DNA of 64,000 nucleotides from Scyliorhinus canicula. Its lineage: Eukaryota. Below are positions 22,114 to 54,195 of the stretch, piece after piece. The notes under the pieces are model-generated. The model ran no database searches. It saw nothing but the letters and a program-made list of their open reading frames with translations, and was not told the origin of the DNA. The stretch is from NCBI RefSeq assembly GCF_902713615.1, contig NW_024055461.1, forward strand, positions 1,287,877 through 1,351,876, given 5' to 3'. Both the position numbers and the translations under genes were made by a program. The number at the start of each line of letters is the position of its first letter. Position 1 is the stretch's first letter.

Positions 22114-23725
22114 AGAGTCCTCTGATGATTTGAGCCCAACCTCGAATCACTCGAATTAATTTCCATTTAATTGGGAAACAAAATTAAATGAAATTTCGTG
22201 GCTCCACAAAGTGTTTCCAACTCCTGCCTCCCACCCCGTTAACAGGTGGATGCAATTATTTTTCTTACTGAAAGGGTGGTCTCTGGGGCCATGGTAGTGC
22301 TGTGGTTAGCACTGCTGCCTAATGGTGCTGAGGATCCAGACTCGATCCCGGCCCCGGGTCACTATCCATGTGGAGTTTACACATTCTCCCCGTCTCTGCG
22401 TGTGTCTCACCTTCACAACCCAAAGATGTGCAGGGTAGGTGATTTGAACAAGCTAATTTTGCACCTTAATTGGAATAAAAAGTTGGTTACTCCAAATATA
22501 TTTTTAAAAACTCTTTCCTAATGTTTACAATGAAAGGTGTGGGTACCCCAGGAGAGGGCTACATTTCAGGGACAGTAAATGGACAGGTATCCGTCTCATG
22601 TTCTTATCTGGTACAGATTAGATATATTAATTACAGTTCCGTAATAAAATTCATAATTATTTCTCGCCATGTACTATAAGACTGTAGCTATGTTATAGAT
22701 TTCCAGCTATCTCTTCCCTCAGAGGGTTGTGTTGGATTTCTCTTCCACAGGGACCAGTTGTATCTGGGGGTCATTGAATATATTGAACCACAAGTTAGAC
22801 AGATATTTTATTGACAATGGAGTTAAGGGTTACGGGGAACATGTAGGAAAATAGCGTGAAAGCTGAGATGAGGAGGGATTTCTTCACTCGAGGATGTGGT
22901 GAAGCTTTGGTATTCCCCAGAGGAATATGGAGCCTCAGCCATTAGGTATGTTCAAGACAAATATTGACAGGTTTCTAGATGTTGAAGATATCGAGGGATA
23001 TGGGGATCATGTGGGAAAATGGTGCTGAGGTAGATCAGCCAAGGATCTCATTGAATGGTTGAGCAGACTCGGTGGGCCGAATGGCCTACACTTGATCCTA
23101 TTATAATCTCTGCGTCCTGGTCAGGAAGCAGTGAGCTGAACTTGGATCTGTAAATCAACATGAATCAGCCCTTCAGGAGAATTGGGAGGGTGAATATTAG
23201 ATACAGCAGAGTGAGAATGGAGGGAGATTGTGTCGGATGGAGATTTACAGATTTTGGAAAAGGAGAGGAAATTATATTCCATAGGAAGTAGAATTGTCTT
23301 CTGAGTTTCTATCCTGTAATAACAGTGATGACTTTCGTAAATTGTTTTTAAAGGATATTAGAAGAGGAGGAATTATAGACAGAAATCTCAAACATCACGT
23401 CTCGATGTGACAAACTCACTCGATTCCTTCTGATCTGAAAACAACGGGCTCTGAACATCATCGACGAGAAGGAGAAATTTTTGTCCGATCTTTCGGCGTC
23501 AAAAGATTTGAAATATCAGTGTGACTGGAAAAGCACCGAGACCCACACCACACATCCGAGTGAGAGAGTTCCAGTGAACTCACTGTGAAAAGAGCTTCAA
23601 CCAGACACACGGCCTGAAAAAAACATCACACCATTCACACTGAGGAGAGACAGTGCACATGTTCTGTGTGTAGACAAGGCTTCAACTGATTGTCCAATCT
23701 CGAGAGACACGAGGAGACCCAAAAC

Positions 23726-25012
23726 ATGGAGAAACCGTGGAAATGTGCTGACTGTGGGAAGGGATTTAGAGCCCCATCTGTGCTGGAGATTCATTGCCGC
23801 AGTCACACTGGGCAGAGGCCATTCACCTGCTCTCAGTGTGGGAAGGAATTCACTCAGTTATCCAGTCTGTATGCACACCAGCGAGTTCACACTGGGGAAA
23901 AGCCATTCACCTGCTCCCAGTGTGGGAAGGAATTCACTCAGTTATCCAGTCTGCAGAGACACCAGCGAGTTCACACTGGGGAGAAGCCATTCACCTGCTC
24001 CCAGTGTGGGACGGGATTCAGTTCTTCATCCAACCTACGGAAACATCAGCGAGTTCACACGGGGGAGAGGCCATTCACCTGCTCCCTCTGTGAGAAGGGA
24101 TTCAGTGATTCATCCACCCTGCAGACACACCGGCGAATTCACACTGGGGAGAGGCCATTCATCTGCTCTCAATGTGGGAAGGGATTCATTAACTCGTCCA
24201 AACTTCGGAACCATCAGCGAGTTCACACTGGGGAGAGGCCGTTCACCTGCTCTCAGTGTGGGAAGGGATTCAATAACTCGTCCAACCTTCGGAACCATCA
24301 GCGAGTTCACACTGGGGAGAGGCCGTTCACCTGCTCTCAGTGTGGGAAGGGATTCAGTGATTTATCCACCATGAAGAGACATAAGCGAATTCACACTGGG
24401 GAGAGGCCATTCACCTGCTCTCAGTGTGGGAAAGGATTCAGTGATTTATCCACCCTGCGGAAACATCAGCGAATTCACACTGGGGAGAGGCCATTCATCT
24501 GCTCTCAGTGTGGGAATGGATTTACACATTTATCCAGTCTGCAGACACACCAGCGAATTCACACTGGGGAGAGGCCATTCACCTGCTCTCAGTGTGGGAA
24601 GAGATTCAATAACTCGTCCAACCTTCGGAACCATCAGCGAGTTCACACTGGGGAGAGGCCGTTCACCTGCTCTCAGTGTGGGAAGGGATTTGTTAGTTCA
24701 TCCACCATGAAGAGACATAAGCGAATTCACACTGGGGAGAGGCCATTCACCTGCTCTCAGTGTGGGAAAGGATTCAGTGATTTATCCACCCTGCGGAACC
24801 ATCAGCGAGTTCACACTGGGGAGAGGCCGTTCACCTGCTCTCAGTGTGGGAAGGGATTTGTTAGCTCATCCACCATGAAGAGACATAAGCGAATTCACAC
24901 TGGGGAGAGGCCATTCACCTGCTCTCAGTGTGGGAAGGGATTCAGTAATTCGTCCAACCTTCAGAAACACCGGCGAGTTCACACTGGAGAGAGGCAATTC
25001 ATCTGCTCTTAG
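23726..25012 (+). CDS. tandem C2H2 zinc-finger protein, 15 fingers, no effector domain; ends at a premature TAG in finger 16
   Basis: ATG of MEKPWKCADCGKGF, then 15 C-x2-C...H-x3-H units with TGE(R/K)PF linkers; CAG>TAG at FICS*. The leader exon acceptor lies near 23353. Confidence 0.85.
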   Translation: MEKPWKCADCGKGFRAPSVLEIHCRSHTGQRPFTCSQCGKEFTQLSSLYAHQRVHTGEKPFTCSQCGKEFTQLSSLQRHQRVHTGEKPFTCSQCGTGFSSSSNLRKHQRVHTGERPFTCSLCEKGFSDSSTLQTHRRIHTGERPFICSQCGKGFINSSKLRNHQRVHTGERPFTCSQCGKGFNNSSNLRNHQRVHTGERPFTCSQCGKGFSDLSTMKRHKRIHTGERPFTCSQCGKGFSDLSTLRKHQRIHTGERPFICSQCGNGFTHLSSLQTHQRIHTGERPFTCSQCGKRFNNSSNLRNHQRVHTGERPFTCSQCGKGFVSSSTMKRHKRIHTGERPFTCSQCGKGFSDLSTLRNHQRVHTGERPFTCSQCGKGFVSSSTMKRHKRIHTGERPFTCSQCGKGFSNSSNLQKHRRVHTGERQFICS

Positions 25013-25029: not shown

Positions 25030-27395
25030 TAGAAACATGAAAAGGGAGAGCAGGAAGAGGCCATTTGGCCCTTTGCGCCTGATCTGCCATTCATTATGAT
25101 CATGGCTTATCATCCAACTCAATAGCTTAATCCCGCTTTCCCCTCCATATCCTTTGACCCCCTTCGCCTTCAGTGCGATATCTAACTGCTTCTTGCAAAC
25201 AAATAATGTATTGGCCTTAAAGTTTTCCTGTGGTAACAAATTCCACGGGCTCACCACTCTCTGGTTGAAGAAATTTCTCCTCATCTCTGTCTAAATGGTC
25301 TCCCCCGTATCCTCAGATTGCGACCTCTGGTTCTGTACACTCCCACCATCGGGAAAATCTTTCCTGCATCTACCTTGTTAAGTCCTGTTCGAATATTATA
25401 GGTTTCTATGAGATCCCCCTCATTCTTCTGAACTCCAGCGAATACAAACCTAACTGATTCAATCTCTCATACGTCAGTCCCACCATCCCAGGAATCAGTC
25501 TGGTAAACGCTCGCTGCACTCCCTCTAGAGCAAGAACATCCTTCCTCAGATAAGGAGACCAAAATTGCTCACAATATTCCAGGTATGGCCTCGCCACGGC
25601 CCTGTGTAATAATAGCAAGATATTCCTGCTCCTGTACTCGAATCCACTCGCAATGAAGGCTAGCATACCATTTGCCTTCTTTACCGCCTGCTGGAGCTGC
25701 ATGCTTACCTTCAGTGACTGGCGTACAAGGATACCCAGGTCTCATTGCACATTCCCCGCCTCTCCTAATCTATGGCCGTTCAGATAATAGTCTGCCTTCT
25801 CATTTTTAGTACCAATGTGGATAACCTCGCATTTCTCCAAATTATACTGCATCTGCCATTCATTTGCCCACTCACTCAACTTGTCCAAATCACTCTGAAG
25901 GATCTCTGCATCCTCCTCACAGCTCATCCTCCCAAGCAACTTGTGTGATCTGTAAATTTGGAGATATTGCATTTTGTTCCCTCATCTAAGTTGTTAATAT
26001 ATAAGTGGTGCAGCTGCCTCATGGTGCTGAGGATCATGGTTCAATCATGCCTGGGTCACTGTCTGTGTGCAGTCAAGTTCTCGATTTTGCGTGGGTCTCA
26101 CCCCCATAACCCCAAAGATGTGCAGTGGAGGGGAACTGGCCATGCTAAATTACCACTTATTTACAAAAATAGAATTGGGTACTTTAAATTTGAAAAGAAA
26201 AATCATTTATATATCTTGTGAATATCTGGGGCCCAGGCACTGATCCCAGCGGTACCCCACGAGCCACTGCCTGCCAATTTGAAAAAGATCCATTAATTCC
26301 TCCTCTTTGTTTCCTGTCTGCCAGTCAGTTTTTTTATCCATCTCAAGAGACGACCCCTAATCCCATGTGCTTTCATTTTACCCACTAATATCTTATGCAG
26401 GAATAAGTCGAAAGCTATCTGAAAGTCCAAATATACCACATCCACTGGCTCTCCCTCGTCAACTCGACCAGTTACACACTTGAAGAATTCCAGTAGATTT
26501 GTCAAGCATGATTTCCCCTTCATAAATCCATGCTGGCTCTGTCCGATCCTGCCACTGGTTTCGAAGTGCTTTGCTATAAAATCTTTGATAATGGATTCTA
26601 AAATTTGCCCCACTGCCGATGTCAGGCTTACTGGTCTATAATTTCCTGTTTTGTCTCGAGCTCCCTATTTAAATAGTGAGTTACATAAACCACCCTCCAA
26701 TGTGCAGGAATTGTTCCAGAGTCTATAGAATCCTGGAAGATGACCACCAATGCATCCATTATTTCTAGAGCCACTTCCTTAAGTACTTTGGGATACAGAT
26801 TATCAGGCCCTGGGGATTTATCAGCCTTCAATCCCATCAATTTCCCCAACACAATTTCTCGAATATTGATCTCCTTTAGTTCCTTCCTCTCACTAAATCC
26901 TGCGTTCCCCAACATTTCTAGCATCTAATTTGTGAAGCCAGAAGCAAAGTATGTATTTATTTGCTCACCCATTTCTTTGTCCCCTATTATACATTCCCCT
27001 GTTTCTGACTGAAAGGAACCTACATTTGTCTTCACCGATCTTTTTCTCTTCACATACCGACAGAAACTTATACAATCGGCCTAATTTCCTGTTTTGTGCC
27101 ATTCCCAACATCACCACTGCAGTTAGGGGGGTCTATATACACAACGCCCACTAATGTTTTTTGCCCCTTGGTGTTTCTCAGCTCTACCCATACAGATTCC
27201 ACATTGTTGGAGCTAATATCCTTCCTCACTATTGCATTAATTTCCTCTTTAACCAGCACTGCCACTCCATTGCCTTTTCCTTTTTGTCTGTCCTTCCTAA
27301 ATACTGAATATATTCAGTTCCCATCCCTGGTCATCCTGCAGCCATGTCTCCAGAATCCCGATTATCTCACACCCGTTTACATCTATTTACACAAT
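25030..27395 (-). mobile_element. CR1 LINE ORF2 (endonuclease-RT, internally deleted and frameshifted) inserted in the ZNF array; carries a SINE at about 26015-26200
   Basis: Minus-strand ORFs with VESVWVELRN, KADKSPGPD, SQHGFMKGKSCLTNLLEFF, YLDFQ.AFD, WQMQYNLEKC, RPYLEYC.QFWSPYL and RNFFNQRVV. Confidence 0.92.
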
Positions 27396-27428
27396 TCACT
27401 CGGTTATGCCGTCTGCAGTCACACCAGG

Positions 27429-28222
27429 GAGTTCACACTGGGGAGAGGCCGTTCACCTGCTCTCAGTGTGGGAAGGGATTCAATAACTCGTCCAACCTTC
27501 GGAACCATCAGCGAGTTCACACTGGGGAGAGGCCGTTCACCTGCTCTCAGTGTGGGAAGGGATTCAGTGATTTATCCACCATGAAGAGACATAAGCGAAT
27601 TCACACTGGGGAGAGGCCATTCACCTGCTCTCAGTGTGGGAAAGGATTCAGTGATTTATCCACCCTGCGGAAACATCAGCGAATTCACACTGGGGAGAGG
27701 CCATTCATCTGCTCTCAGTGTGGGAATGGATTTACACATTTATCCAGTCTGCAGACACACCAGCGAATTCACACTGGGGAGAGGCCATTCACCTGCTCTC
27801 AGTGTGGGAAGAGATTCAATAACTCGTCCAACCTTCGGAACCATCAGCGAGTTCACACTGGGGAGAGGCCGTTCACCTGCTCTCAGTGTGGGAAGGGATT
27901 TGTTAGTTCATCCACCATGAAGAGACATAAGCGAATTCACACTGGGGAGAGGCCATTCACCTGCTCTCAGTGTGGGAAAGGATTCAGTGATTTATCCACC
28001 CTGCGGAACCATCAGCGAGTTCACACTGGGGAGAGGCCGTTCACCTGCTCTCAGTGTGGGAAGGGATTTGTTAGCTCATCCACCATGAAGAGACATAAGC
28101 GAATTCACACTGGGGAGAGGCCATTCACCTGCTCTCAGTGTGGGAAGGGATTCAGTAATTCGTCCAACCTTCAGAAACACCGGCGAGTTCACACTGGAGA
28201 GAGGCAATTCATCTGCTCTTAG
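27429..28222 (+). pseudogene. headless duplicate of ZNF fingers 7-15
   Basis: Identical translation to the 3' part of the 23726-25012 ORF, with the same TAG. Confidence 0.85.
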
Positions 28223-31293: not shown

Positions 31294-33004
31294 TTCAGGT
31301 TAGAAGATATTTCATTACCATTTCTGTTTTGAAATCCCCCAAATCATGCCACATTGCCATAAAGATGGGCTATGGTGGTTACGTGGTTCTTTTGTTTAAT
31401 TTGTCTTGGTGCTTCTCACAGAAGAAAACTATCAGGGTATGAGGGGCATGTTGTCTGAGGTGCACTGGGAAACTACATTACATGGTATGGTGGGTGACAG
31501 GCAATCACTAATATTTATGGAATTATTACAGATTTACATGGGGATCGGTTCGCTCAGTTGACTGGATGGCTGGTTTGTGCTGAGTGACACGAACAGCACA
31601 GGTTAAATTCCCATAGCGGCTGAGGTTAGCCATGGTCTGTCAGTATTTGTGCTCCACATGACCCTCCACCCACCCCTCTATATCCCCCCCCTCTATACCC
31701 TCCTTCCCCCCCCCCCCCCCCCCCCCCCCACCATCAGCATCTCCCTCTATTCCTTTCTCTCTCATGTATGTATCTAGCTTTACGTTCAATGTATTAATGC
31801 TGTTCACCTCAACCACTGGCTGTGGGAGTGAGTTGCACATTCTCACCACTCGCTGGTAAAGAGGTTTCTGCTGAAATTCCTATTGGATTATTGAATTCCT
31901 TCATAATCTGAAAGACTTCCTCCAGGTCACCCATCAGTCTTCTCCTTTCCAGAAAAAAGCAGCCCCAGACTTTCCTGGGTGTTAAATGCTCTCAGTTCTG
32001 TATATTATGAATCTTTGTTGCACCTTATCCAGTGCCTCTATTTCCTTTATCGAAATGGAGATCACCAATGTTGACACTGCTCCCAGTGTAGTCTAACCCC
32101 GGTTCTAAACAAGCTGAACATTTCCTCCGTGCTTTTCAATTCTATCTCTCTAGAATGGAACCCTATATATAATTGCCCCACACTTTGGGAAAGATGTGAA
32201 GTTCTCAGAGACGGTGTCGAGAACATTTACGAGAATGGTACCAGAGATGAGGGACACCAGTTAGTTGGAGTGACTGGAGCAACTAAATTTCACTCCTGAG
32301 ATCACAGCATCTGGAGGGTGGGGAATGGGGCCATTCAGCCCTTTGGGAACGTGTCGGCTCCCTGTGGAGGAAGCCAGTCTGTCTATTGCCCCGTTCTATC
32401 CCCAAATCCCTGTGAGTTTATTTCTCTCAATGCCTGTCCAATTTCCTATTGAAATCATTCCATCATCTCTGCATCTCCCACCCTCATAGGCGATAGGTTC
32501 CAGGTTGTTACCACTCCCTTTACATGTACACAAGGCTGTTCGAGCACAGAGGAGTCTATTTGGCCCATTTTTCCTATGCCAGCACTTTGTATAGCGACCC
32601 ATTTAATCCCAGAGTCCGGCTATTTTGTTTTCTTTTTCAGAATGCATCAAATTACATTTTGGAAATTGCATTCCAATGAGATTCCAGCACCATTTATCGA
32701 CAGTGCATTCCAAATCACAAAAACTCGCTGTGTTTTACAACAAATAATTGTGCATATGGTGTGTGTGAATTTTCACAGAGTATTCAAAATGGTGTCAATG
32801 ACGTGGGTATTACACAAAATTAAGACTCAATCTTTATCAATGATTCTGGTGAGGACACCGAGTGTAATATATGCGGACAATTGGAATAAATGTACATTTC
32901 TATCAAACCTCTCGACCACTGAACCTCCTAAAGTGTTTTAAAGCCAATGGAGTACTTTTGAATTGAAACATATTCACTGTTGTAATGTAGGAAGCTGTAA
33001 GTAC

Positions 33005-33970
33005 TGTTCTGGAAAATACAGAATGTGTCATTTGAAACATAGAGGTCTGCCAATATCTGGTCTGGGAGAGTGCAGGGAAAGATCCCACAAGAGGTTGGTG
33101 GCAGCTGAAAAGAGCAGAAACTGTGGCCAGCTCTTCTGTCAAAAATGCAGTCAATTTCAGTCTGTCAGAATTGTTATTACAACCTGCAGCAGGAGAAAGG
33201 GAAAAAGAAAAAAACAGAGTTTGCATACATTTCTTTGTGCTGTTGAAATATTGTAATGGACTGCCCCTTTAAGCCCCGTAGTCCTTTCCCCATCGGAGGT
33301 CCCGATCTCCCGCCAAAAATCACTAAGCGCGGGCTTCCCTCGCTCCTCCCCCCACGTGCGAGGCAGCAGACATCGGGAGAAAAGCAGAACGCGAGGGAGC
33401 AGCAGCTGGAGAGGGCAGAACGGAGCTCAGAGGAAGGAGGACAGAAAACAGAGAACCAGCATCAGGAGAGAGAGAGAGAGAGAGAGAGAGAACTCGGTTA
33501 TGGGAAAGGCAAAGCAAACAGCTGAGTGTAAACGGTAATAGATTTAAAGAAGGCTAGGATTTAAAGGTAAAATGTTAAGTTTGGGTCTGAAGGTCCCCAA
33601 CCAACCAGACAACATCCAAAATCACTAATCTGTTTACCTTTCTGTATAAGAAAGTGTTTACAACTTATTAAAAAAAGTATGATAATAATAAAATAATTTA
33701 ACCTGAAAAAGTGGTTATTAGCTTACTTCACTTCCTTAATAACGCAGGACCCAGGACATCAATGCTATTAAAGGGTAAGTAGGTAAAATTCTTCGGTGAA
33801 GGTATGGGTTATACCGGGGGATAACTTGAAAGGAGAGTTTGACCTGAATAGCACCCACAGAAGCCTGTATCGGAGTCAGGGAGTGAGAATCCCTGTTCAC
33901 CATTTTAGAGTATTGGCCCTTTTTTGGTTTAGGGGGAATTCTAAGACAGAGTGGTGGATTTACAAAAACA
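33005..33970 (+). repeat. 5' LTR (966 bp)
   Basis: TGTTCTGGAAAATAC...GGATTTACAAAAACA. It matches 41122-42086 except about 7 substitutions plus GA-run and A-run length changes (counted by eye). Confidence 0.95.
33116..33201 (+). other. WDFY3: captured WDFY3-like FYVE-coding fragment in the LTR (also at 41233-41318)
   Basis: Reads RNCGQLFCQKCSQFQS and, after a frameshifting deletion at GTCTG, CQNCYYNLQQEKG. The WDFY3 C-terminus as I recall it is RNCGQLFCQKCSRFQSEIKRLKISSPVRVCQNCYYNLQHERG. Confidence 0.8.
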
Positions 33971-33988
33971 TGGCGAGCCAGCCAGGAG
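33971..33988 (+). promoter_or_regulatory. primer-binding site for tRNA-Arg(ACG)
   Basis: TGGCGAGCCAGCCAGGAG is the reverse complement of the vertebrate tRNA-Arg(ACG) 3' end CUCCUGGCUGGCUCG-CCA; it abuts the LTR. Confidence 0.9.
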
Positions 33989-34118
33989 GCCTAGAATATT
34001 AGAAGTTTCTAGGTAAATAGGGGCTAGAATATTAGAAGTTTCTAGTTCCCAAGAAACGGTTGGAATATTAGAAGTTTCTAACCGGCACAAAGGCTAGAAT
34101 ATTAGAAGTTTCTAGCCT
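33989..34118 (+). other. four tandem stem-loops with invariant loop TATTAGAAGT (candidate packaging or dimerisation signal)
   Basis: Stems GCCTAGAA/TTCTAGGT, GGGGCTAGAA/TTCTAGTTCC, CGGTTGGAA/TTCTAACCG and AGGCTAGAA/TTCTAGCCT. Confidence 0.8.
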
Positions 34119-34540
34119 GTGTGTGAGTCAAACTTTACCTGCCGAGTTTAGTTTGGAAAGTCATGTGTGATTGGCTTTTGTAAGGATATTCTGTGGATCG
34201 AGGGGACAGAAGCTCAGGTTGGGTGTGAAAATTAGTAGACTAGAAGATACTGGCCCTGAGAAAAGTCTGCAAGACATTTTGGTGACAGCACTAAAATTTT
34301 GCATCCATTACTGGTAAAAGGGGCTAAAGAATAAATCATCCTCAGGGTAAGGCAGATTGTGCGGACATTTTCTGGAAAATAGGAACGCTTATCTTCAGAA
34401 ACCAATAATCAATCGACCCTTAACTAAAGCAGGAAGATAGTGCCTTGGTCAGCCTTGGATAGGGCCCAGAAAGGGTACTTATCCTTAATTTCAGAGTGCA
34501 CCTGAAAGGGACAACCAGGAACAGAAAAAAAATCCGAAAA

Positions 34541-37500
34541 ATGGCAATTAGGGTAATTCTCATGCCCTGGGATACGGTCAAGAGAAATGTAGCAGTGAAA
34601 CAGGAATGGAAGAAATTAAAAGAGCAAAAGAAATCCTGGAAAAAAGATATGTATCCAGACGGAGATATCTCCTTCTTTGTTAGAGTGCCAAAAGCCCTGC
34701 AATATACAGATCCAGTAGGGATCCTTAAAGCACTTTGTAAGTTTGCATTTGAAAAGCAAACTGAATCACTAATCTTGTTCGGACACAGACAGAAGCATGC
34801 AGCTGCTCAAGTGGGCAAAGTGTGCTCCAAACTGATTAAAATCATTGACGAAGAAAACATGAAAGAAATAATACAGATCCCTAGTGAACACAAAAGTAAC
34901 TCTGAAGTGGCAAACAAATATATAAAACAACTGCAGAAAAATGAAACATTAGAAATGGAAAATGACGAGGAATCAGTCCTAGAATCAGATAGCCGAGAGA
35001 ATTCGGACCCCTTTGAAAATTTCCCAAAGGGATACAATTTTCAATACCCAGATCCAAGTCCGTTTCAGGAAGAAAATTGGCCACGGCAATCTGCCACATA
35101 TAAAAAAGGAGCTTTTATCGATTATTTCTTTGAAACACAAGAAAGTGAAGAGGAACAAAGCCTAGTTGGGATTATGGCGCCTCCTGCGCTGGGACAGGAA
35201 GAATCATCATCCTCATCAGAGAATGAGGAAATAGTAAAACCAAGGAGAAGAATAGGGAATAGAAAAAATTCTAAACCATTAGAAATAGGGGATTATAGTG
35301 ATTACTGGAAACAACAACAACCTTCCACTTATCGACCAATAAATAAGGATTTACCGTATTATATGTATAATCCAGAAGCAAAAATGGTACACCATAGAGA
35401 TCAGGAAGGATGGGAAAGAGAGGTTACATCTAGGGGACTTAAAATAGGAGAAATATTAGGAGGAAGTCAACAAATTGATTCTACGAAATTACTGGAATTA
35501 CCAAACGTTACCCCCAAAGCTAAAATTTGGCAAATGAGCAAAGGGTATGACAGTTTCGGAAGAGCCATGAGTAGGGTAAGGAACAGCACAGAAACACAAG
35601 GCCAGATAACAGCAGCATTAAGACCACAAGAAAGGATACAGAATCGTCCAAGACCCCGAATAACTGCTCCTACTCCTATGGATAGGGCAAGTTATGCTCC
35701 ACGAGATAGCCAAGTACCAATTGCAATGTTTGAAGAATATATAGAACCGGTGGAAGATTTTGTACAACATGGTACCCCCTATTTTGAGGAAGAACCAGTA
35801 CAACGACAGATACATTTCTCAGAATATAGGACACCTTTAAGAACACCATGCCCCAGAAGTGAGAAAGTAGTTCAGTTATTTACACCAGGTCCAGAGGAAG
35901 GACAGGGAGGCATGGTACCGTATAAAATAGTAGCAGCAGTAATGAAGACAGCAGGCCCAAAGAAACATGGGGAGAGTAGAATTGAGTATTCACAGAGGTT
36001 AAAACAGTTAGCGAAGAAAATGGGGGCATCAGGAGAATCCACCAAATTGATTGATTCAGTGGGAGAAATAGTTACAGGCGAAGTCTCAGATTTAATAAAT
36101 GAGTTAGATTTGGGAAATGAGAGAGCTAACTTAATGAAAGAGATGACAGAGGCAGCATATGCAGGGGAACACCTCACAACATATGTCGACCGAATATATG
36201 AGGTTAATAAGGAAGAGGGGGCCGATGTAGTCAGATTCCTGAGGGAATTAGGACCCAAGATTCCAGGAGGAAATAGCCTCTCAACAATACTGTTAACGAC
36301 CTCTAGAAGAGAAATAGGAAGAGAACTGGTGAAATTTGATTTGGCAGGCAAAGCATTTAAGGATAAACACACAAAAGGGGAACAAAAAAGAGTAGCAGCT
36401 GCCCAAAATAATGTTTCAACACAAAATGCTCAGATTAGACCACCAAACCGACAGATACCTGACAAATCGGAACACAATCTAGCCCAACCAGCAATGCCAC
36501 AACATGGGTATAATCTGCGGTCACAAGGGCCACCTCCACCACAAAATCTAGATTACTTACCAAGGGAACAATTCCTAGCCCTCAGTCGGGAGGAAAGAGA
36601 CAGATTCATTGAGGATAGGAGAAGAAGAGCAGCTGGTCAGGGGAAAGATTTAATAAAAATAGATACTAGAAAAATAAGGATATTAAAACCAATTGATAAC
36701 ATGGAGGAAATAAGGAAACAGAAAGAGAAAAGTATTTTAAATGAAGCTTGGAAGAAGATGGAAGAAGTATTAATGGGAGCAAACCTAGCGATAGGTAAGA
36801 ATGACACAGGTTTAATTAGCAAGCGGTTCCAACACACAATTCACGGGGGACAACACAGACCTCAAAAACAGTATCCTTTGACTAGAGGAGCTAAGAGCGA
36901 GCTGGAGATAATAATCAAGGAATTGGAGCAGCAGGGGATTATTCAAGGGGTCACATATGCCTCAACAAATAGTCCACTTCAAGTAGTAAGAAAACCAGAT
37001 GGTACATTTAGGATGGTAACAAATTACAAAGCTTTAAATAAAGTCACAAAGAAGGACAAGAGATATTTAATAAATCCACAAGCTACCTTAGAGCAAGTCG
37101 CGGGAAAAACTTACTTAACTAGTATAGATTTGGCGAATGGATTCTGGAGTGTTCCATTAGACCCAGACAGCAGGGAGAAAACAGCATTCACCTTCGGAAC
37201 TAAGCATTATGTATATTGTAGACTGCCACAGGGATATGTTAATTCTCCGAATCACTTTCAGGCAATAATCAGGGAACTGATTAAAGATGATTTGGCTTTA
37301 GTATATATCGATGATATATTAATTGGAGATGACGATCAGGACAAACATGTGGAAAGAGTGGCCAGGATAATTAAGACACTTAGTGAAGCAGGCTTTAAAA
37401 TAGGGCTAAAGAAATGTCAAATTGGGAGAAGCGAAGTCAACTATTTGGGTTATTCAGTATCGAAGGAAGGTAGAGAGGCCAGTATTGAAATGAGGAAGAA

Positions 37501-39448
37501 GGTAGCTGAAATTACTGCGCCTGTTTCGAAAAAAGGGGTTCAAAAAATAATGGGAATATTGGGATATCTAAGGCCAGTAGTGAAAGACTTTAGTCTTTAT
37601 GCTAAAGCCATTTATCAAACATTGCAAGGGGATTTTATTTGGACCAGCGAGGCCCAGAGAGGGTTAGATCAGTTAAAGATAGCAATTGCGATATCGGGAC
37701 CATTAGTTGGGAGACAAGAAGAGGATGATTTAAGCATTAAATTAGACATATATAAAAATGGATATGGTATGGTGCTTGCTAATCTTAGCAATCAGACACC
37801 TATCAAACATCTGACAGGAAACTGGTCGAGAGCTGAACAAAAGTTTTCAAACATCGAGAAATGTCTAGCAGCTATAACAAAGAGAATAGCAGAGATAGAA
37901 AACTTGTCGGGTGGTAAGAAAATTTATGTCACAGCTGAGTTTTTGGAATTAAAGGAGCTAACCAGGAGACAGATTTGCCAGCAAGGCGCGAATACAGCTC
38001 GATGGGAAAGATGGGAAACCATTCTTCTAAACCCTGACTTAATGTTTATTCATAACATTAAAAAGGGACAGAAACTTGATGAACCAGTTAGTAAAACGGA
38101 GTTGGTGAATGCTTGGGTATTATATACTGATGGTAATAAAGTCAAGAAGGACGAAGAACAAGCCAGATGGGCATTCATTTTAAAAAATTCAGGAAAAATA
38201 GTAGTGGAGGAACAGGGAATAATCATTGGATCAGCTCAGACAGCTGAGGTAGAGGGAGTATTGCAAGGGTTAAAGGAGTGTCAGCAGCGAAAGCTGCAGG
38301 AAGTTACCGTTGTAACCGACAGCTTTTTCGTGCAGCAAGGATTGGAGAAAGATTTGGAGTTTTGGAAACTAAACGGTTGGACGAACGGTAGAAATAAACT
38401 ACTGGAACAGAAAGAACAGTGGGAAGAGATAGATAAAATTTTAGCCGATATGGAGATCCAGACAATTCATCAAAAAGCACACACAAAAGGAACTGGGGAA
38501 CTGTGTAAGGGGAATCAGGAAGTGGATGAATTAGCCAGACTTAGGACAATAATCTTGGGGACTCTTGGGAACACAGCAGCCGACCTTCAAATGATAATTA
38601 AGCAAATACATGAAGCCACAGGACATGGGGGTCATGTTGTAGTCGCAAGGGAGTTGAAAAAGTTGGGAATTAAAATAGCCTATTGGAGACAACATTTAAC
38701 TGCAGTAAGGAGAAAATGTGAGAGATGTATGGCCTGTGGAGGACAGAGAGGGAATAAAACATATGGGAGCATAAAAACTGAGAAACCAATGCAGGAATGG
38801 TCATTAGATTATGCAGGACCACTTTTTCCCAGAAGCAGCAACGGTAATTTGTATTTTTTAGTCAAAGCTGATAGCTGCACGGGAGAAATTGACCTTAGAG
38901 CAACCAGCAAAGCAAATGGAGCCACGACCAAAAGGGTATTGGCAGAAATGATGACCTCCAGAGGTAGACCAGAATCGATCCGAATGGACAACGCGCCGCA
39001 CTTTAGAAACAATACTGTTATTAACTTTTGTGCTGACAGAGGAATAACAATCAATTGGGCCGTGAAATATGCACCTGAGAGTAATGGAATGGCTGAGAGG
39101 TCTGTAAGAAAAGTAAAGGATTGGATCATAAAGAATCAGAATAATAAAGGCTGGGATAAAGACATTGAAAGAATAGTATTTGATCTTAATAGTAATCTTG
39201 GAACCTCTGTCTCCCAGGGACAAGGGGACCCAAGTGAATCTGGGAATTATCAAGTAGGAGACGAAGTTTGGGTGAAGCTACCAACTAAGACTGTGGGGAA
39301 AATCATTCGTGAGACTGTAAAATGTAAAGACAAGATTGTTCAGATTCTGGGTACACATACAATTGAATTAGAGAAGCATGGTGTCTGGAGCAAAAGGAAT
39401 TGTGTCACAATTGAAACACACGACCCAGTGAGCATCAGAGGAGTTTGA
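34541..39448 (+). CDS. Gag-Pol polyprotein, 1635 aa from the first ATG: Gag, RT, tether, RNase H, integrase; no recognisable protease
   Basis: GYNLR (36506), RPQKQYPL (36857), DLANGFW, RLPQGYVNSP, YIDD (37304), WSRAEQKFSNIEK tether, YTDG (38123)...AQTAE...TDS...KGNQEVD RNase H, H-x4-H...CERC, and D...D-35-E integrase (WSLDYAGP, RMDN, NGMAER). Confidence 0.93.
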   Translation: MAIRVILMPWDTVKRNVAVKQEWKKLKEQKKSWKKDMYPDGDISFFVRVPKALQYTDPVGILKALCKFAFEKQTESLILFGHRQKHAAAQVGKVCSKLIKIIDEENMKEIIQIPSEHKSNSEVANKYIKQLQKNETLEMENDEESVLESDSRENSDPFENFPKGYNFQYPDPSPFQEENWPRQSATYKKGAFIDYFFETQESEEEQSLVGIMAPPALGQEESSSSSENEEIVKPRRRIGNRKNSKPLEIGDYSDYWKQQQPSTYRPINKDLPYYMYNPEAKMVHHRDQEGWEREVTSRGLKIGEILGGSQQIDSTKLLELPNVTPKAKIWQMSKGYDSFGRAMSRVRNSTETQGQITAALRPQERIQNRPRPRITAPTPMDRASYAPRDSQVPIAMFEEYIEPVEDFVQHGTPYFEEEPVQRQIHFSEYRTPLRTPCPRSEKVVQLFTPGPEEGQGGMVPYKIVAAVMKTAGPKKHGESRIEYSQRLKQLAKKMGASGESTKLIDSVGEIVTGEVSDLINELDLGNERANLMKEMTEAAYAGEHLTTYVDRIYEVNKEEGADVVRFLRELGPKIPGGNSLSTILLTTSRREIGRELVKFDLAGKAFKDKHTKGEQKRVAAAQNNVSTQNAQIRPPNRQIPDKSEHNLAQPAMPQHGYNLRSQGPPPPQNLDYLPREQFLALSREERDRFIEDRRRRAAGQGKDLIKIDTRKIRILKPIDNMEEIRKQKEKSILNEAWKKMEEVLMGANLAIGKNDTGLISKRFQHTIHGGQHRPQKQYPLTRGAKSELEIIIKELEQQGIIQGVTYASTNSPLQVVRKPDGTFRMVTNYKALNKVTKKDKRYLINPQATLEQVAGKTYLTSIDLANGFWSVPLDPDSREKTAFTFGTKHYVYCRLPQGYVNSPNHFQAIIRELIKDDLALVYIDDILIGDDDQDKHVERVARIIKTLSEAGFKIGLKKCQIGRSEVNYLGYSVSKEGREASIEMRKKVAEITAPVSKKGVQKIMGILGYLRPVVKDFSLYAKAIYQTLQGDFIWTSEAQRGLDQLKIAIAISGPLVGRQEEDDLSIKLDIYKNGYGMVLANLSNQTPIKHLTGNWSRAEQKFSNIEKCLAAITKRIAEIENLSGGKKIYVTAEFLELKELTRRQICQQGANTARWERWETILLNPDLMFIHNIKKGQKLDEPVSKTELVNAWVLYTDGNKVKKDEEQARWAFILKNSGKIVVEEQGIIIGSAQTAEVEGVLQGLKECQQRKLQEVTVVTDSFFVQQGLEKDLEFWKLNGWTNGRNKLLEQKEQWEEIDKILADMEIQTIHQKAHTKGTGELCKGNQEVDELARLRTIILGTLGNTAADLQMIIKQIHEATGHGGHVVVARELKKLGIKIAYWRQHLTAVRRKCERCMACGGQRGNKTYGSIKTEKPMQEWSLDYAGPLFPRSSNGNLYFLVKADSCTGEIDLRATSKANGATTKRVLAEMMTSRGRPESIRMDNAPHFRNNTVINFCADRGITINWAVKYAPESNGMAERSVRKVKDWIIKNQNNKGWDKDIERIVFDLNSNLGTSVSQGQGDPSESGNYQVGDEVWVKLPTKTVGKIIRETVKCKDKIVQILGTHTIELEKHGVWSKRNCVTIETHDPVSIRGV

Positions 39449-39476
39449 GATTCTTCGAATCTCACTCAGGGGTGCA

Positions 39477-39632
39477 ATGACAGAAGGAGGCTTAACAGGC
39501 CTTAATGGTATGATGTACATCAAGGATATGGAAAATAAACCAGTTCAAAAAGAAATGGTGGCAAAAGAAATCCGGAAGTCCTGGAGAGGGCATTTCTGGG
39601 TTAACCAAATGAAAACAGAAAGTACAAATTAA
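39477..39632 (+). CDS. putative small accessory ORF A (51 aa)
   Basis: MTEGGLTGLNGMMYIKDMENKPVQKE...; support is limited to an open frame just after pol. Confidence 0.25.
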   Translation: MTEGGLTGLNGMMYIKDMENKPVQKEMVAKEIRKSWRGHFWVNQMKTESTN

Positions 39633-39677
39633 AGAATAGGGCCCTCTCCACCCTTGATCTGTTCATTTGATTTTCAG

Positions 39678-39806
39678 ATGGAAAAAATAAATAACGAACC
39701 AGTTCACAAGAAGGAAGAGAACTACACTCCAGAGAGGAATCTTTTAGACAGGATTGGGGGGGAAACTAATGATGCAATTGGCTACATATTTGAGGGAATT
39801 AAATGA
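39678..39806 (+). CDS. putative small accessory ORF or exon B (42 aa) behind a strong splice acceptor
   Basis: CCCTCTCCACCCTTGATCTGTTCATTTGATTTTCAG|ATG, then MEKINNEPVHKKE... Confidence 0.3.
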   Translation: MEKINNEPVHKKEENYTPERNLLDRIGGETNDAIGYIFEGIK

Positions 39807-40642
39807 CAGAACCCCGAGGAAAACTTTACGGGGTAGAAACAAATCAAAATATCAAATTATAACTGGACAGTGAAACCTCCGGTCAGACATCTCTAACTGG
39901 ACATTAGCTGATGGGTGATCTGCGGTCTCCATGGAGTATGTACTACGTGGTGGAATTATTAAGGGTCTCGGCAGATAGCAGCGACTGACGAGGAACCCCA
40001 ATATGATAAATGACAATAGTTTAAGAATTTTAGTAGCTTGATACTACGGCGGGAAAATTGTTACCAATGCAGCAAAACAATATTGCATTGAAGAGCTGTA
40101 ATCGTTATTATAAAAAATAAAAATTAAAAAAAAATATTAAATTTTCATGTAAATTGATAGGGACTGTTATATATATATGATAAGGGGGGTATGTGTGTCG
40201 TTAAAGAACTTGATCCGCATTTCTAAACTCTGTGAATGTTTTAATAGAGGGGTAGTTTAGTGTGTTTTCTTGATTTAACTATATAGTACATTACAAATAA
40301 TATTGATGTTGTTTATATGCCATATTTAGTATGTAATAATTATTGTTCCCAAAGCCAAGAAGGAATGTTTCGATATTGATATTAAATTTTGTTAACAGTT
40401 GAAAATATGTAAAGTTGTAACACACAGTCTATTTGTGTGGTTAGGTAATGAATAATGTGTTAAGATAAGATTTTTTTTTTACTATGTATTTAACAATAGG
40501 GAGAATTTGTTTGAAAAAAAAGACGGTTCAATGTGGTTTTGCAAATGCTGTAATGAAAAATATACACTTTGTCAGAAAGATATTCTCTCATGTAAACCAG
40601 AGGTTGGCAGACTTACATGATTCACGACAATGTTAGACATTA

Positions 40643-41152
40643 ATGGGGAAGTTAGGAATACAAGCAGGATCAATTGAACATTTTAAATTAATGAAACAAA
40701 GGGATCAGTGGGTGGTACATGATATCACAATTACCCCATTCCAATCAGAAATGGAAAACTATTTGGACGACGGAAAAATGGGGCACGTAACAACCAGTGA
40801 TGGACAAAAGATCTGTTTGGTTACTGATGAACTGAGTTGTGTGCTGGTTCTAAGGGACATGAGGAAGCTTATACGGTGCTGCTATCCCAAGGAAGTAAAA
40901 TGCTTTGGAGGTAGTGGAACACACGGAAAGCTAATGTGTTACCTTCCTGAGCGGCTATGGCTATGGTTCACGGTAATTGGACTGGAACGGAAAACAAGAC
41001 TCTTATTGACACTGGTCTGTGATATGCATACAAATGACAAAGATCAGGGATGTATGTTAGTACAATTGGATGGGGGGACAATAAACCAAATTATAGTAAT
41101 GTTTCAAATGTCAAGACGGGGTGTTCTGGAAAATACAGAATGTGTCATTTGA
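40643..41152 (+). CDS. putative accessory ORF C (169 aa, Cys-containing, unknown function)
   Basis: Open frame running across the PPT into U3; no homology recognised and no Env hallmarks. Confidence 0.4.
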   Translation: MGKLGIQAGSIEHFKLMKQRDQWVVHDITITPFQSEMENYLDDGKMGHVTTSDGQKICLVTDELSCVLVLRDMRKLIRCCYPKEVKCFGGSGTHGKLMCYLPERLWLWFTVIGLERKTRLLLTLVCDMHTNDKDQGCMLVQLDGGTINQIIVMFQMSRRGVLENTECVI

Positions 41153-41373
41153 AACATAGAGGTCTGCCAATATCTGGTCTGGGAGAGTGCAGGGAAAGAT
41201 CCCACAAGAGGTTGGTGGCAGCTGAAAAGAGCAGAAACTGTGGCCAGCTCTTCTGTCAAAAATGCAGTCAATTTCAGTCTGTCAGAATTGTTATTACAAC
41301 CTGCAGCAGGAGAAAGGGAAAAAGAAAAAAACAGAGTTTGCATACATTTCTTTGTGCTGTTGAAATATTGTAA
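41050..41373 (+). CDS. putative U3-overlapping ORF D (107 aa) with the WDFY3-derived peptide in frame
   Basis: Starts before the PPT and reads ...AEKSRNCGQLFCQKCSQFQSVR...; position analogous to bel2/nef-type genes. Confidence 0.35.
   Translation: MYVSTIGWGDNKPNYSNVSNVKTGCSGKYRMCHLKHRGLPISGLGECRERSHKRLVAAEKSRNCGQLFCQKCSQFQSVRIVITTCSRRKGKRKKQSLHTFLCAVEIL
41113..41121 (+). promoter_or_regulatory. polypurine tract
   Basis: AAGACGGGG immediately before the TG of the 3' LTR. Confidence 0.7.
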
Positions 41374-42086
41374 TGGACTGCCCCTTTAAGCCCCGTAGTC
41401 CTTTCCCCATCGGAGGTCCCGATCTCCCGCCAAAAATCACTAAGCGCGGGCTTCCCTCGCTCCTCCCCCCACGTGCGAGGCAGCAGACATCGGGAGAAAA
41501 GCAGAACGCGAGGGAGCAGCAGCTGGAGAGGTCAGAACGGAGCTCAGAGGAAGGAGGACAGAAAACAGAGAACCAGCATCAGGAGAGAAGAGGAGGAGAG
41601 AGAGAGAACTCGGTTATGGGAAAGGCAAAGCAAACAGCTGAGTGTAAACGGTAATAGATTTAAAGAAGGCTAGGATTTAAAGGTAAAATGTTAAGTTTGG
41701 GTCTGAAGGTCCCCAACCAACCAGACAACATCCAAAATCACTAATCTGTTTACCTTTCTGTAGAGAAAGTGTTTACAACTTATAAAAAAAAAGTATGATA
41801 ATAATAAAATAATTTAACCTGAAAAAGTGGTTATTAGCTTACTTCACTTCCTTAATAACGCAGGACCCAGGACATCAATGCTATTAAGGGGTAAGTAGGT
41901 AAAATTCTTCGGTGAAGGTATGGGTTATACCGGGGGATAACTTGAAAGGAGAGTTTGACCTGAATAGCACCCACAGAAGCCTGTATGGGAGTCAGGGAGT
42001 GAGAATCCCTGTTCACCATTTTAGAATATTGGCCCTTTTTTGGTATAGGGGGAATTCTAAGACAGAGTGGTGGATTTACAAAAACA
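41122..42086 (+). repeat. 3' LTR (965 bp)
   Basis: TGTTCTGG...TACAAAAACA followed by the GTAC TSD. Confidence 0.95.
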
Positions 42087-45000
42087 GTACGTATGTGTAA
42101 TTACATTTAGTTTTGAAATTGTTATTTTCATAGTGTATTCCCTGTCATTAGTAACATGGTCAAGGAAGCCCTTTTATACCTCGAACATGCAGCTTCCTGC
42201 AGCCATTTCACCTTCTGTACCTTTTCTGTATTAACCACATTGATTTCACAGCAAAAAGCAATAATTAAATTTATGATTATTCAGTAGTGAACATAGATTA
42301 TCATACATGAATTGGTGTGTGAGGTAGTTATCTTGTAAAGACTAGTTCTTTATTTTAAAAAGTAACACTTCCAACCAAAATGTTTCCAGAAACTGCAGAG
42401 CTATCAGAATTTGTTTGAAAAAATAAATTACTTTATAATTTTGAGAAGTTACAAGACATCATATTCTGCCAAGACTATGTGGGCTGGGCAGAGGTGTAAT
42501 GGTATTGTTACTGGGCTAGTAATCCAGAGACCCAGGTTAATGCTCTAGGGATCTGGGATCGAATCTGCCTATGACAGTTTTTGAAATTGAATAAAAGTCT
42601 CAAATTCAAAGTCTAATGTTGACATTGTTGATCGTTGTAAAAACCCGTCTGGTTCACTAATGTCGTTTATGAAATCTGCTCTCCTTTTGTGGCCTGTCCT
42701 GCACGTGACTCCAGATCCACAGCAATGTTGTGGTTGATTTGTAAGTCTCCTTAAATAGCCTCACAAGACATGCAGTTCAAGGGCATTGGAATGAGCAGTA
42801 AATGCTGGTCCAGCCAGTGACGCCCACCTCCCATTAATGAATACTTTTTAAGAAGGTTTATTGTTCAATCTGAAGACTAGTAAGAAACTCTCTTTGATTG
42901 GATTTGATTAATTGTCACGTGTATCAAGGTACAGTGAAAAATATTGTTCTACATTTCCAGACAGATTGCTCCATACATGAAAAAACATAGGACATACAAT
43001 AAACATACAATGTAAATACATAGACACAGACAGCGGGTAAAGCGTATGGATTATAGTACTACTCAGAAAAGAACCAGTGTATCTTGTATTAACCAAATGT
43101 ATTAATTAGTTTGTAACATGATTAAATAAGTAGTGATCCTTAATTGAGTGACAATTAATGAAACTTTTTTTTTATTCATTGGGCATTGGCGTTGCAGGCT
43201 GTGCCAGCATTTATCACCCATTCTTATCGATTCCAGGCTTGGGTCACTGTCTGTGCGGATTCTGCACTTTCTCCCCATGTATGCGTCCCCACGTAGACAT
43301 GGGGAGAAGGTGTAATCTCCACACCGACAGCCACCCAAGGTTAAAATTGAACCTGAGTCCCTGGCACTGTGAGACAACAGTGGTAACCACTGTGCCACGC
43401 TAACAGTTGACTCTGGTGGGATATGAGCCCACAACCTTTGAATCCCTTACTTGCGATTAAGTAGAAGTCCAACACACTATCCATTGTGCTACAGAGTCAT
43501 ACATATCCTTTAATCCCTTTAGCCCCAAGAGCTGTATCAAACCCCTTCTTCAAATTGTACACTGTATTGGCCTCCACGACTTTCTGTGGTAATGAATTCC
43601 ACAGGCTCGTCACTCTCTCTAGGTGAAAAAATTTCTCCTCACCTCAGTCTTAAAAGTTTTACTCCATGTCCTCAAGCTATGACCCCCTAGTTCTGGACTT
43701 CCCACCATTGGGAACATTCTTTATGAATCTACTCTGTCCACTCCTGTTAGAATTTTATACGTTTCTTTGAGATCTTCTCATTAAAAAAGAGATGGAGAAG
43801 CAGAATTAGGCCATTCAGCCCATCGCGTTTGCTCTGCCATTCGATCATGGCTGATAAGTTTCTCGTCCCCATTATCCTGCCTTCTCCCCATAACACCTGA
43901 GCCTCTTATTCAAGAACCAATATATCTCTGTCTTAAAAAGACTGACGGGCATGGCCTGGTGCCATGTGGCCATCAATTAATTTCCTTTCCCCCAAGAGAA
44001 ATCAAGGACTTGACACTGTGTGTTTGAGACAAAGCTGATTTATTTCACAAACAACAAGATATTAAACACTCGCCCAGCTCAGTTACAGGGAATCGAAATA
44101 AACCCCAATTGTCAGATTGAAGATGGTTCAGTTCTGGGTGTGATTATCAGTGGCAGTAACAGCAGAATCAACACTTTTCAGATGAACAGAGGGTAAATAT
44201 AAATTAGTTTGACAGTTCAGGAATCATCAGTGGCATCTTATGATGTGGAGAAATTAGCTCAACAATTCTATGAACTAAAATTTAGTCTGGCCTGGTGTCA
44301 CCAAGCTGAAATCCAGTCTTTCTCTGACACATTATTCTTAATGACATAGCTGACAGGTTAAGAGTGAAAAAGTCAACTGTTTAGCAGTACGGGGAAGAGG
44401 CAGGTTTGTAGATGTTCTACAGTGTTACAAACGGGCTCGTTGGATCTTATTCTGTCCCATCTTACATTCAGCTGACAGTAAAATGACTAAAATACTGCAA
44501 CATACAGGCATTTGGGGACAATGGTGAGATTGCTGCTCAGATTAGTTAAAGTCTCCATATTGTAAAATAGATCTAGAAGGACTGGAGAAGATGCAGGAAA
44601 AGATATTTGAATTATGCCTGAACTGGCAGGTTACACCCAGTAAGAAAGATTGGACAGGGCATAACATTTTCTCTTGAAAAGGGAATGAAGGATGACCTGA
44701 TCCTGTAAGACTATGAACAGGTTTGATATGATAGACAAGTGGAAGATGTTTCCACTGAATAAGAATAAATATGAGTTAGTGATTGATTAATCTAATGTGC
44801 AGTTCAGAGGGAGATCACTCACACACTTCACATGTGCAAAGGAATTTCCTCAGTTTTCCCACTGGTTAACACTCCAACTTTAAAAGCCCAGACAATTTGA
44901 TCCAATTGCAGCACATTGTTATGGACGAGGGGCAGTTTAACTGTTCTGTCCAGGAAGACAAAAATCACTGTTCACCTGAACCTGCTCAGACCCCAACCCG

Positions 45001-48420: not shown

Positions 48421-49391
48421 GGTGTTCGAAGGGGAGGCTTCAAAGTCCGGAAACTCAAACCAAGCATCACATCAGGATCTGACCGACCACAATTTATCCT
48501 GAATATCATAGGATTTTGAACATGTAAGGAAAAAGCATCGTTCACAGTGGGGAGAAACCGTACTTGATTTGTGTGTGTGGACGAGGATTCACTCCATCAT
48601 CAGGCCTCACAAGCCACAAATGCAGTCACACTGAGGAGAAACCGTGGAAATGACTGGACTGTGGGAAAGGATTCACTTCCCCATCCAAGCTGGAAACTCA
48701 TCCCCGCAGTCACACTGGAGAGAGACCATTCACCTGCTCAGAGTATGGGGAGGGATTCACTCAGTCATCCTCTCTGTCCACACACCAGCGAGTTCGCACG
48801 GATGAGAGACCGTTTCAATGTCCAGACTGCGGGAAGTGCTATAAACGTTCTGGGGAACTGGTTCGCCATCAGCGTGTTCACACTGACGAGAGACCGTTCA
48901 GGTGCTCTCACTGTGGGACTGGGTTCAGACAATCATCTGACCTCACTGTACATCAGCGAAGTCACACTGGGGAGAGGCCATTCACCTGCTCGAAGTGTGG
49001 GAAAGGATTCACTCGATCATCTAACCTGCAGAGGCACCAACAAATTCATACTGGGGAGAGGCCATTCGCCTCCTCAGGGTGTGGGAAGGGATTCATTTAG
49101 TCACCTGACCTGCTGAGTCACCAGCGAGTTCACACTGATGAGAGACCTTTTCAATGTCCAGACTGCGGGAAGTGCTATAAAAGTTCTGGGGAACTGATGC
49201 ACCATCAGCGTGTTCACACTGACGAGAGACCGTTCAGGTGCTCTCACTGCGGGACTGGGTTCAGGCAATCCTCTGACCTCACTGTACATCAGCGAGTTCA
49301 TACTGGGGAGAGGTCATTCACCTGCTCCAAGTGTGGGAAGGGATTCACTACTTCATCCCATCTCCTGGGACACCAAAAAGGCCACAAGTAA
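48421..49391 (+). pseudogene. frameshifted C2H2-ZNF pseudogene
   Basis: Acceptor TTTTACAG at 48420; fragmented fingers such as [48 protein letters not shown]. Confidence 0.85.
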
Positions 49392-53339: not shown

Positions 53340-54195
53340 CCGGCATTTGGGGGGGGGGGTGTTCCGGCATTTGGGGGGGTGGTGTGTTCCGGCATTTTGG
53401 GGGGGTTGGTGCTGTGTTCCGGCATTTTGGGGGGGGGGGGTTGGTGGTGTGTTCCGGCATTTGGGGGGGGGGGGGGTTGGTGGTGTGTTCCGGCATTTGG
53501 GGGGGGGGGGGGGTTGGTGGTGTGTTCCGGCATTTTGGGGGGGGGGGTTGGTGGTGTGTTCCGGCATTTTGGGGGGGGGGAGGGTTGGTGGTGTGTTCCG
53601 GCATTTTGGGGGGGGGGGGGGTTGGTGGTGTGTTCCGGCATTGTGGGGGGGGGGGGTTGGTGGTGTGTTCCGGCATTTGGGGGGGGGGGGGGGTTGGTGG
53701 TGTGTTCCGGCATTTGTGGGGGGGGTTGGTGGTGTGTTCCGGCATTGGGGGGGGGGGGGGTGTGTTCCGGCATTGGGGGTTAGGGTTAGGGTTAGGGGGG
53801 GGTTAGGGTTAGGGTTAGGGTGGGGGTGGGTTGCGGCCATCGGGGGGCATCGGGGGAGTGGGTTGCAGCATCGGGGGGGTGGGTTGCAGCATCGGGGGGG
53901 TGGGTTGCGGCATCGGGGGGGTAGGTTTCGGCCATCGGGGGGGCATCGGGGGAGTGGGTTGCGGCATCGGGGGGGGTGGGTTGCGGCCATCGGGGGGGCA
54001 TCGGGGGAGTGGGTTGCGGCATCGGGGGAGTGGGTTGCGGCATCGGGGGAGGGGTTGCGGCATCGGGGGAGTGGGTTGCGGCATCGGGGGGGGTGGGTTG
54101 CGGCCATCGGGGGGGCATCGGGGGAGTGGGTTGCGGCATCGGGGGGGTGGGTTGCGGCATCAGGGGGAGTGGGTTGCGGCATCGGGGGGTGTGTT
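53340..54195. repeat. two G-rich minisatellites (G-run-TTGGTGGTGTGTTCCGGCATT; GTGGGTTGCGGCATCGGGGG)
   Basis: About 33-bp units at 53340-53775 and about 20-bp units at 53822-54195. Confidence 0.9.
53780..53820 (+). repeat. interstitial telomeric repeat (TTAGGG)3-G5-(TTAGGG)3
   Basis: Six perfect TTAGGG units at the junction of the two minisatellites. Confidence 0.9.

Follow-up and report, generated by a model that had tools for sequence, protein, structure and literature searches.

Foamy-like endogenous retroviruses (ERVs) have been described in teleosts, with tRNA-Lys, Thr or Asn as primers according to excerpts of PMC5210030 and PMC5512871, and in sharks, where Jing et al. 2023 (PMC10699275) annotated the family ERV-Spuma.0-Sca. 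Its annotation rows give a length of 9,220 nt, with gag starting at position 1538 and pol in the same frame, and its authors grouped it with AciFLERV and AliFLERV. Here we analyzed a 64,000-nt stretch of the Scyliorhinus canicula genome (assembly GCF_902713615.1, contig NW_024055461.1, positions 1,287,877 to 1,351,876 of the forward strand; hereafter the window), which carries a foamy-like provirus at positions 33005-42086. We consider it probable (roughly 0.85) that this provirus is a protease-less and envelope-less copy of ERV-Spuma.0-Sca, likely mobilised in germ cells with the protease of its relatives, and that its tRNA-Arg primer site likely arose by a single mispriming.

The provirus is confirmed as a genuine element. 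Alignment of its long terminal repeats (LTRs) delimits a 5' LTR of 966 nt (33005-33970, TG...CA) and a 3' LTR of 965 nt (41122-42086), both on the plus strand like every proviral feature given below. The pair differs by seven mismatches over 963 paired columns (0.73%) plus five gap columns. The element is bounded by matching GTAC target-site duplications, to which no strand applies (33001-33004 at the left end and 42087-42090 at the right). At 17 of the 20 best paralogous flank loci (15 identified by script and two more by eye) a single GTAC was found without the element, which was present at the other three; the host flank is a duplicated segment, and three assembled copies share the flanks of this insertion. 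Across the family, a 4-nt duplication was found in 51 of the 57 copies with both ends and a 5-nt duplication in none. A short purine tract (41113-41121) ends at the LTR in the boundary GGG/TG, a motif typical of foamy-like elements (excerpts of PMC5210030) that also places the element with the fish foamy-like ERVs.

The coding capacity lies in a single frame of 1,635 amino acids (34541-39448), in which a shortened Gag is followed by reverse transcriptase (RT; 36857-37456, YIDD at 37304), a tether consisting of a degenerate RNase H (37640-38026), a second RNase H with D-E-D-D residues (38111-38539) and an integrase with HHCC and D,D(35)E-type residues (38570-39445), without protease. The frame contains the motifs RPQKQYP, DLANGFW, RLPQG, YIDD, KEGR, TDSF and KGNQEVD, and its best solved-structure match for Pol is the protease-RT of a foamy virus (E 3e-82, versus 2e-43 for Ty3). 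No CCHC zinc knuckle was found in this frame, and a search of six frames revealed no D[TS]G motif with protease-like surroundings elsewhere in the element. The lack of a Cys-His box is accompanied in relatives by the glycine/arginine-rich (GR) Gag end expected of fish foamy-like ERVs; this GR box is deleted in the window copy. A preliminary description, made from the letters of the window, had already recognized a spumavirus-related shark ERV from this Pol motif series with its tether and separate RNase H, from the 4-bp duplication and from a Gag without zinc knuckle, all of which our analysis bears out; the absence of protease had been overlooked.

Judged from the supplement of PMC10699275 (its annotation rows and two snippets), the window element is a defective copy of ERV-Spuma.0-Sca. 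Its gag starts at element position 1537, versus 1538 in the published family, and the snippets match the LTR end, the drifted Lys primer site, the leader and the TGA gag-pol junction of the copies analyzed here. In the window the leader contains four repeats of a 17-nt core (33991-34115). The S. canicula genome holds about 170 close copies, and an RT search yielded at least 150 hits with identities of 97-100%. Family copies whose pol differs by less than 3% have LTRs ranging from about 850 to 1,230 nt, and LTR likeness between subfamilies is only 80-90%.

The single gag-pol frame of the window copy arose through a deletion in which protease and gag stop were lost. A junction at 36641-36644, with 4-nt microhomology, marks the in-frame loss of 360 nt. 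This segment, which spans the GR box of Gag, the stop codon of gag and the entire protease, was carried by 26 of 30 loci and was absent in four, including the window. Searching the genome with exact patterns, we counted nine places with the deletion, 68 with TGA, 91 with GGA and two with CAA at the gag-pol junction, counts that cover no T- or G-initial codons other than TGA and GGA. Two of the nine deletion places are duplicates of the window insertion, which leaves seven insertions with different flanks; the junction thus recurs at six other places, on large contigs. Protease loss by splicing was also considered and rejected, the junction ends not being GT-AG. A second junction (34985-34993), at a 9-nt direct repeat, marks an in-frame deletion of 678 nt that corresponds to a macrodomain-like Gag insert of older copies. 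One locus (L046) carries the protease deletion and keeps the insert, and all four combinations of the two deletions exist, which implies recombination.

The primer binding site (33971-33988) follows the 5' LTR without spacer and is the complement of tRNA-Arg(ACG), matching the 3' end of the host tRNA at 18 of 18 positions. This part of the preliminary description stands for the window copy and fails as a family trait: an Arg site was found at three of 174 LTR-primer junctions, namely the window insertion and its two duplicates, so that it is private to one insertion. By hand count, the first 100 of these junctions were all of the Lys1,2 type (78 drifted, 12 perfect and 10 other variants). The family therefore has the Lys-type primer that is usual, although not strict, in fish foamy-like ERVs, whereas the window copy has Arg. 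The drifted site is predicted to pair with the tRNA-Arg end at -24.1 kcal/mol, versus -15.6 kcal/mol for the perfect Lys site; tRNA-Lys on the drifted site reaches -38.8 kcal/mol. A host tRNA matching the drifted site was not found (three pattern hits versus one in the control, none of them a tRNA gene). The perfect-Lys copies, 15 among 79, require 15 independent changes when mapped on the pol tree (mean of shuffles 14.1), and this scatter fits a primer copied anew into some progeny. Overall, the Arg site of the window copy likely stems from one mispriming by tRNA-Arg. That such odd traits are assembly or sequencing artefacts of the window contig is scarcely credible. The provirus does lie in a duplicated region of zinc-finger and tRNA sequences, on contigs that are unplaced, where three assembled copies share flanks, but the deletion junction is found on large contigs with other flanks, and three assembled copies, with differences at other positions, all carry the Arg site as a perfect complement of 18 nt of the tRNA.

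In an RT tree of 39 rows, of which three hits carry teleost names and most are unlabelled, the window element and a Scyliorhinus torazame protein 91% identical to it joined teleost foamy-like proteins with a support of 99 (SH-like approximate likelihood ratio test, SH-aLRT). This shark and teleost group is set apart from the gypsy-type hits. Together with the tether and second RNase H, its separate RT clade argues against membership in Ty3/gypsy. The shark branch is long, at about 38% identity to the nearest teleost proteins, and its position among three groups is not settled by the tree. An Arg primer and a single frame are known from snakehead retrovirus (SnRV), and the preliminary description had read the same combination as part of a mosaic of diagnostic traits marking an under-described basal lineage between foamy-like ERVs, snakehead-like viruses and lokiretroviruses. 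Both traits are present in the window copy, 91 copies of the family do have one frame, and the long branch among three groups would suit such a lineage. We nevertheless regard it as highly improbable. The Arg site belongs to one insertion and is no snakehead-like lineage trait, the single frame of the window copy is a deletion, an in-frame stop is the older state of the family, and the element falls inside a family that is published and grouped with AciFLERV and AliFLERV, an outcome that the preliminary description had itself named as refuting its proposal. Most of the mosaic is confined to the window copy. The primer and frame parts of this proposal are thus refuted, and a new basal, snakehead-like or loki lineage is not supported by our tree, which held no labelled sequences of those groups. 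PF00523, the paramyxovirus F type domain that characterizes lokiretrovirus env, was unmatched in three frames, all broken, of an older env-like region.

To relate the junction forms, we fetched 96 copies (40 TGA and 40 GGA places chosen from lists, 15 earlier copies and the window), of which 94 entered a pol tree; two had no usable pol match. The tree comprises an older TGA group, a deletion group and a young clade of 65 copies. TGA and GGA are mixed within the young clade, with 12 changes among its 65 copies compared to a shuffle mean of 19.7 and minimum of 13, which indicates clustering beyond chance. The GGA copies, which have one true gag-pro-pol frame at 91 places, are the youngest: LTR pairs were identical in 19 of 37 GGA copies versus two of 17 young TGA copies (p 0.001), and median LTR divergence was 0 versus 0.003 (p 0.001). 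A single gag-pol frame, as claimed in the preliminary description, is therefore real both in these copies and in the window, although it is not a trait of the family as a whole. The in-frame stop is the older state because TGA was in frame in all four older relatives covering the junction, out of 10 fetched. The older group likewise shows TGA in 20 of its 21 rows. An origin of TGA by CpG decay of CGA was rejected: no CGA was found among A- or C-initial junctions, and the two CAA copies are one nested pair. Pol variants shared among copies of the older group comprise 35 synonymous and 32 non-synonymous changes, compared to 84 and 190 among singletons (p 0.0015); a similar synonymous excess was found in GGA copies (p 0.02) and was not significant in young TGA copies (p 0.11). 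Since shared pol variants of the older group are rich in synonymous changes, TGA elements made Pol.

These results suggest that UGA readthrough was likely the ancestral Pol route, since the close family has no AUG in the interval from the TGA to the protease motif. A Pol initiated separately, as in foamy viruses, is not shown by the family. Alternatively, ancestral Pol may have been made from a spliced mRNA joining an upstream AUG exon to an acceptor-like site after the TGA. This is unlikely in our judgment, although a pyrimidine run and CAG lie 27 nt after the stop in phase with pol, foamy viruses splice pol (excerpts of PMC3705302) and in two teleost relatives a Met precedes the protease motif by 28 residues. 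Against splicing, older relatives retain similar residues immediately behind the stop, two of the four that cover the junction have a changed acceptor AG, and XtERV-S, a frog class III ERV with the same TGA gag-pol layout, is read as suppression in PMC8278194. We also searched contigs of eight public runs, which are RNA by guess or of unknown kind and indicate presence rather than level or absence; no run on record as RNA contained the stretch. No GT-AG joint was found in these contigs, which argues weakly against splicing because contigs drop rare forms. The joint for the protease deletion and the Arg site were not listed in the contigs of the eight runs either. GGA was the main form in four of four runs and the protease segment was present in the four others, all of them RNA by guess only. 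The contigs also reveal, at high depth, a more diverged relative in which the protease end and the integrase end are joined (L039:4397-7085; window 39338-39970), possibly a further non-autonomous subfamily without RT.

Another alternative to readthrough is a two-part system, in which TGA copies supply Gag, GGA copies supply Gag-Pol and loci, not recoding, set the ratio. The interleaving of the two forms in the young clade, which points to recombination between co-packaged RNAs, and the state of the young TGA copies, gag-only in 11 cases and pol-only in two, would be in line with it. However, GGA copies show a like pattern (eight gag-only and three pol-only), the older clade amplified with TGA while its pol was under purifying selection, and the GGA form dominates the contigs in four of four runs. 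We consider this two-part system still less likely than splicing, and readthrough of the in-frame UGA remains our preferred account of the ancestral state.

The older copies carry 678 extra bases in gag between 9-nt repeats, and the corresponding deletion junction was found in 69 of the 96 copies. The insert (226 codons; for example at locus L049:7901-8650, minus strand) matches macrodomains weakly but consistently at the sequence level: its E value against the Pfam macrodomain is 0.002, below the curated cut-off, and most hits in the PDB are macrodomains (best E 1e-4). The genome contains 98 matches to it, with identities as low as about 45%, and it was traced back to relatives about 55% identical. 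A fold predicted from the single sequence of the insert reached a pLDDT (predicted local distance difference test) of 36, and a structure atlas search with the capsid-like part of Gag returned scores under 0.8 only. A review notes macro domain frames in epsilon-like fish ERVs. In the main text of PMC10699275 the words 'protease', 'primer' and 'stop codon' do not occur, and 'macro' in the sense of a domain is absent from the passages covered. We found no description of a macrodomain in foamy-like Gag or of the junction variants in the literature covered, which excludes Wang, Chen and Cui 2023.

ERVs without an envelope attain large copy numbers. In the window, an env-like gene is represented by its two ends only (39678-39999), and about 3.4 kb of an older relative is absent between 39682 and 39768. 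In that relative (L161-L162), the broken env-like region of about 3.4 kb has a hydrophobic helix near each end; by its position and these two helices, it probably represents the lost env. Pfam searches on three of its frames and PDB searches on two gave no match, and none of 45 matches to its first part has an open frame over 249 amino acids. The region published as env in ERV-Spuma.0-Sca had no long frame in the 89 stretches checked (some counted twice), where the longest stop-free stretch after pol was 208 amino acids. A 171-amino-acid stop-free stretch after pol in the window had no Pfam match.

Taken together, these observations are consistent with a family that would move inside germ cells. 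The Gag-RT-RNase H-integrase fusion of the window copy would work in cis, with protease and complete Gag supplied in trans by relatives; foamy RT has been reported, in an excerpt, to be active in a Gag-Pol fusion. The deletions may have arisen through template switching at short repeats during reverse transcription, and recombination would then have mixed them. The commonest primer site would have drifted from a perfect Lys1,2 site to one able to pair with tRNA-Arg(ACG) as well, and 18 nt of tRNA-Arg would have been copied into the provirus during plus-strand synthesis. Ancestral Pol would have been made by reading through the in-frame UGA, which a sense codon later replaced, fusing gag and pol in the youngest burst.

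Several points weigh against this reading. Mobilisation, complementation, mispriming and readthrough are steps that we infer, none of them directly observed. The pol tree is weakly resolved, with strong support on eight of 90 inner branches, and mammalian foamy viruses, SnRV and lokiretroviruses were not represented in the RT tree. A spliced Pol would fit the acceptor-like site that follows the TGA, the UGA context is variable (A or C next) and the sequence downstream showed no strong structure. For the deletion group, the selection signal (seven copies; shared pol variants six synonymous and two non-synonymous versus 15 and 40 among singletons, p 0.013) rests on eight shared variants and may be inherited from recombining intact relatives. 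By title, the study of Wang, Chen and Cui 2023 (PMC9972966) reportedly concerns a cartilaginous-fish endogenous foamy virus and may include the ERV-Spuma.0-Sca family and some of its traits. Two RNase H domains also occur in lokiretroviruses (excerpts of PMC7947760). Finally, published shark rates put the window insertion at about 7-17 million years (Myr), outside the freshest copies: its LTR difference of 0.73% corresponds to about 7 Myr at 0.5e-9 per site and year (PMC10699275) and about 17 Myr at 2.2e-10 (PMC4422223). The recent activity seen in the near-identical LTRs by the preliminary description is thus relative, the young subfamily being the one with 19 of 37 pairs identical.

Beyond the window copy, the family may document a foamy-type retrovirus, with UGA-readthrough Pol and an ADP-ribose-binding Gag macrodomain, turning stepwise into a retrotransposon as env was lost, the macrodomain was lost and the stop was replaced. 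Fused Gag-Pol would now drive a very young, possibly ongoing burst, alongside a protease-less parasite lineage. We hold this longer history only tentatively, at somewhat less than even odds, and yet consider it a worthwhile lead and more interesting than the window copy. If this history holds, spliced Pol would not seem to be an ancestral feature shared by all foamy-like viruses. The family would constitute a dated natural series from a foamy-like retrovirus to an intracellular element, and a test case for the evolution of Pol expression at the base of the foamy-like clade. The Gag macrodomain hints at a defence against ADP-ribose-based immunity that may have become dispensable once the element stopped leaving the cell. 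The window copy further indicates that the primer site or gag-pol layout of one provirus can mislead classification.

The provirus is surrounded by a highly duplicated region of zinc-finger and tRNA sequences, located on unplaced contigs. C2H2 zinc-finger arrays lie at window positions 23690-25012, 27308-28222, 48710-49349 and 57810-57958, and G-rich tandem repeats (53340-54209) surround a short telomere-like TTAGGG run (53774-53832). ARAGORN made three tRNA-like calls (9062-9151, 43406-43499 and 54523-54597), two with the unusual anticodon AAA; these are probably tRNA-derived repeats.

Compared to known systems, the window copy is closest to ERV-Spuma.0-Sca, with which, in the annotation rows and snippets of PMC10699275, it or its family shares the gag start, the same-frame pol, the LTR end, the drifted Lys primer and the TGA junction; it differs in lacking protease, GR box and stop and in having an Arg primer site. 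The teleost foamy-like ERVs (AcERV/AciFLERV, PfERV and DrFV) resemble the shark family, in excerpts of PMC5210030 and PMC5512871, in their 4-nt duplication, GGGTG, long Gag without Cys-His box, mostly Lys primer and env without detectable homology, and they provide the nearest RT hits (35-39%). In contrast, they have separate gag and pol frames, several accessory genes and genomes of up to 17 kb, whereas the shark family has gag and pol in one frame, with or without stop, and has lost its env. For RT-RNase H and integrase the best solved-structure match is prototype foamy virus (Spumaretrovirinae), with which the Lys1,2 primer and GR box are shared at the family level; unlike it, the shark family has no AUG for pol before the protease, spliced pol was not seen and no tas or bel2 was recognised. 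XtERV-S, compared by its description in PMC8278194 only, also has gag and pol in frame separated by TGA, but it belongs to another lineage and has a class I env. Finally, mouse ETn/MusD and monkey SERV offer, in excerpts of PMC7472051 and PMC8775094, a parallel for the primer site: a mismatched site predominates, perfect ones recur at various points in the tree and primers switch. Those elements are betaretrovirus-like and switch between Lys tRNAs, whereas the switch in the shark provirus is from Lys to Arg.

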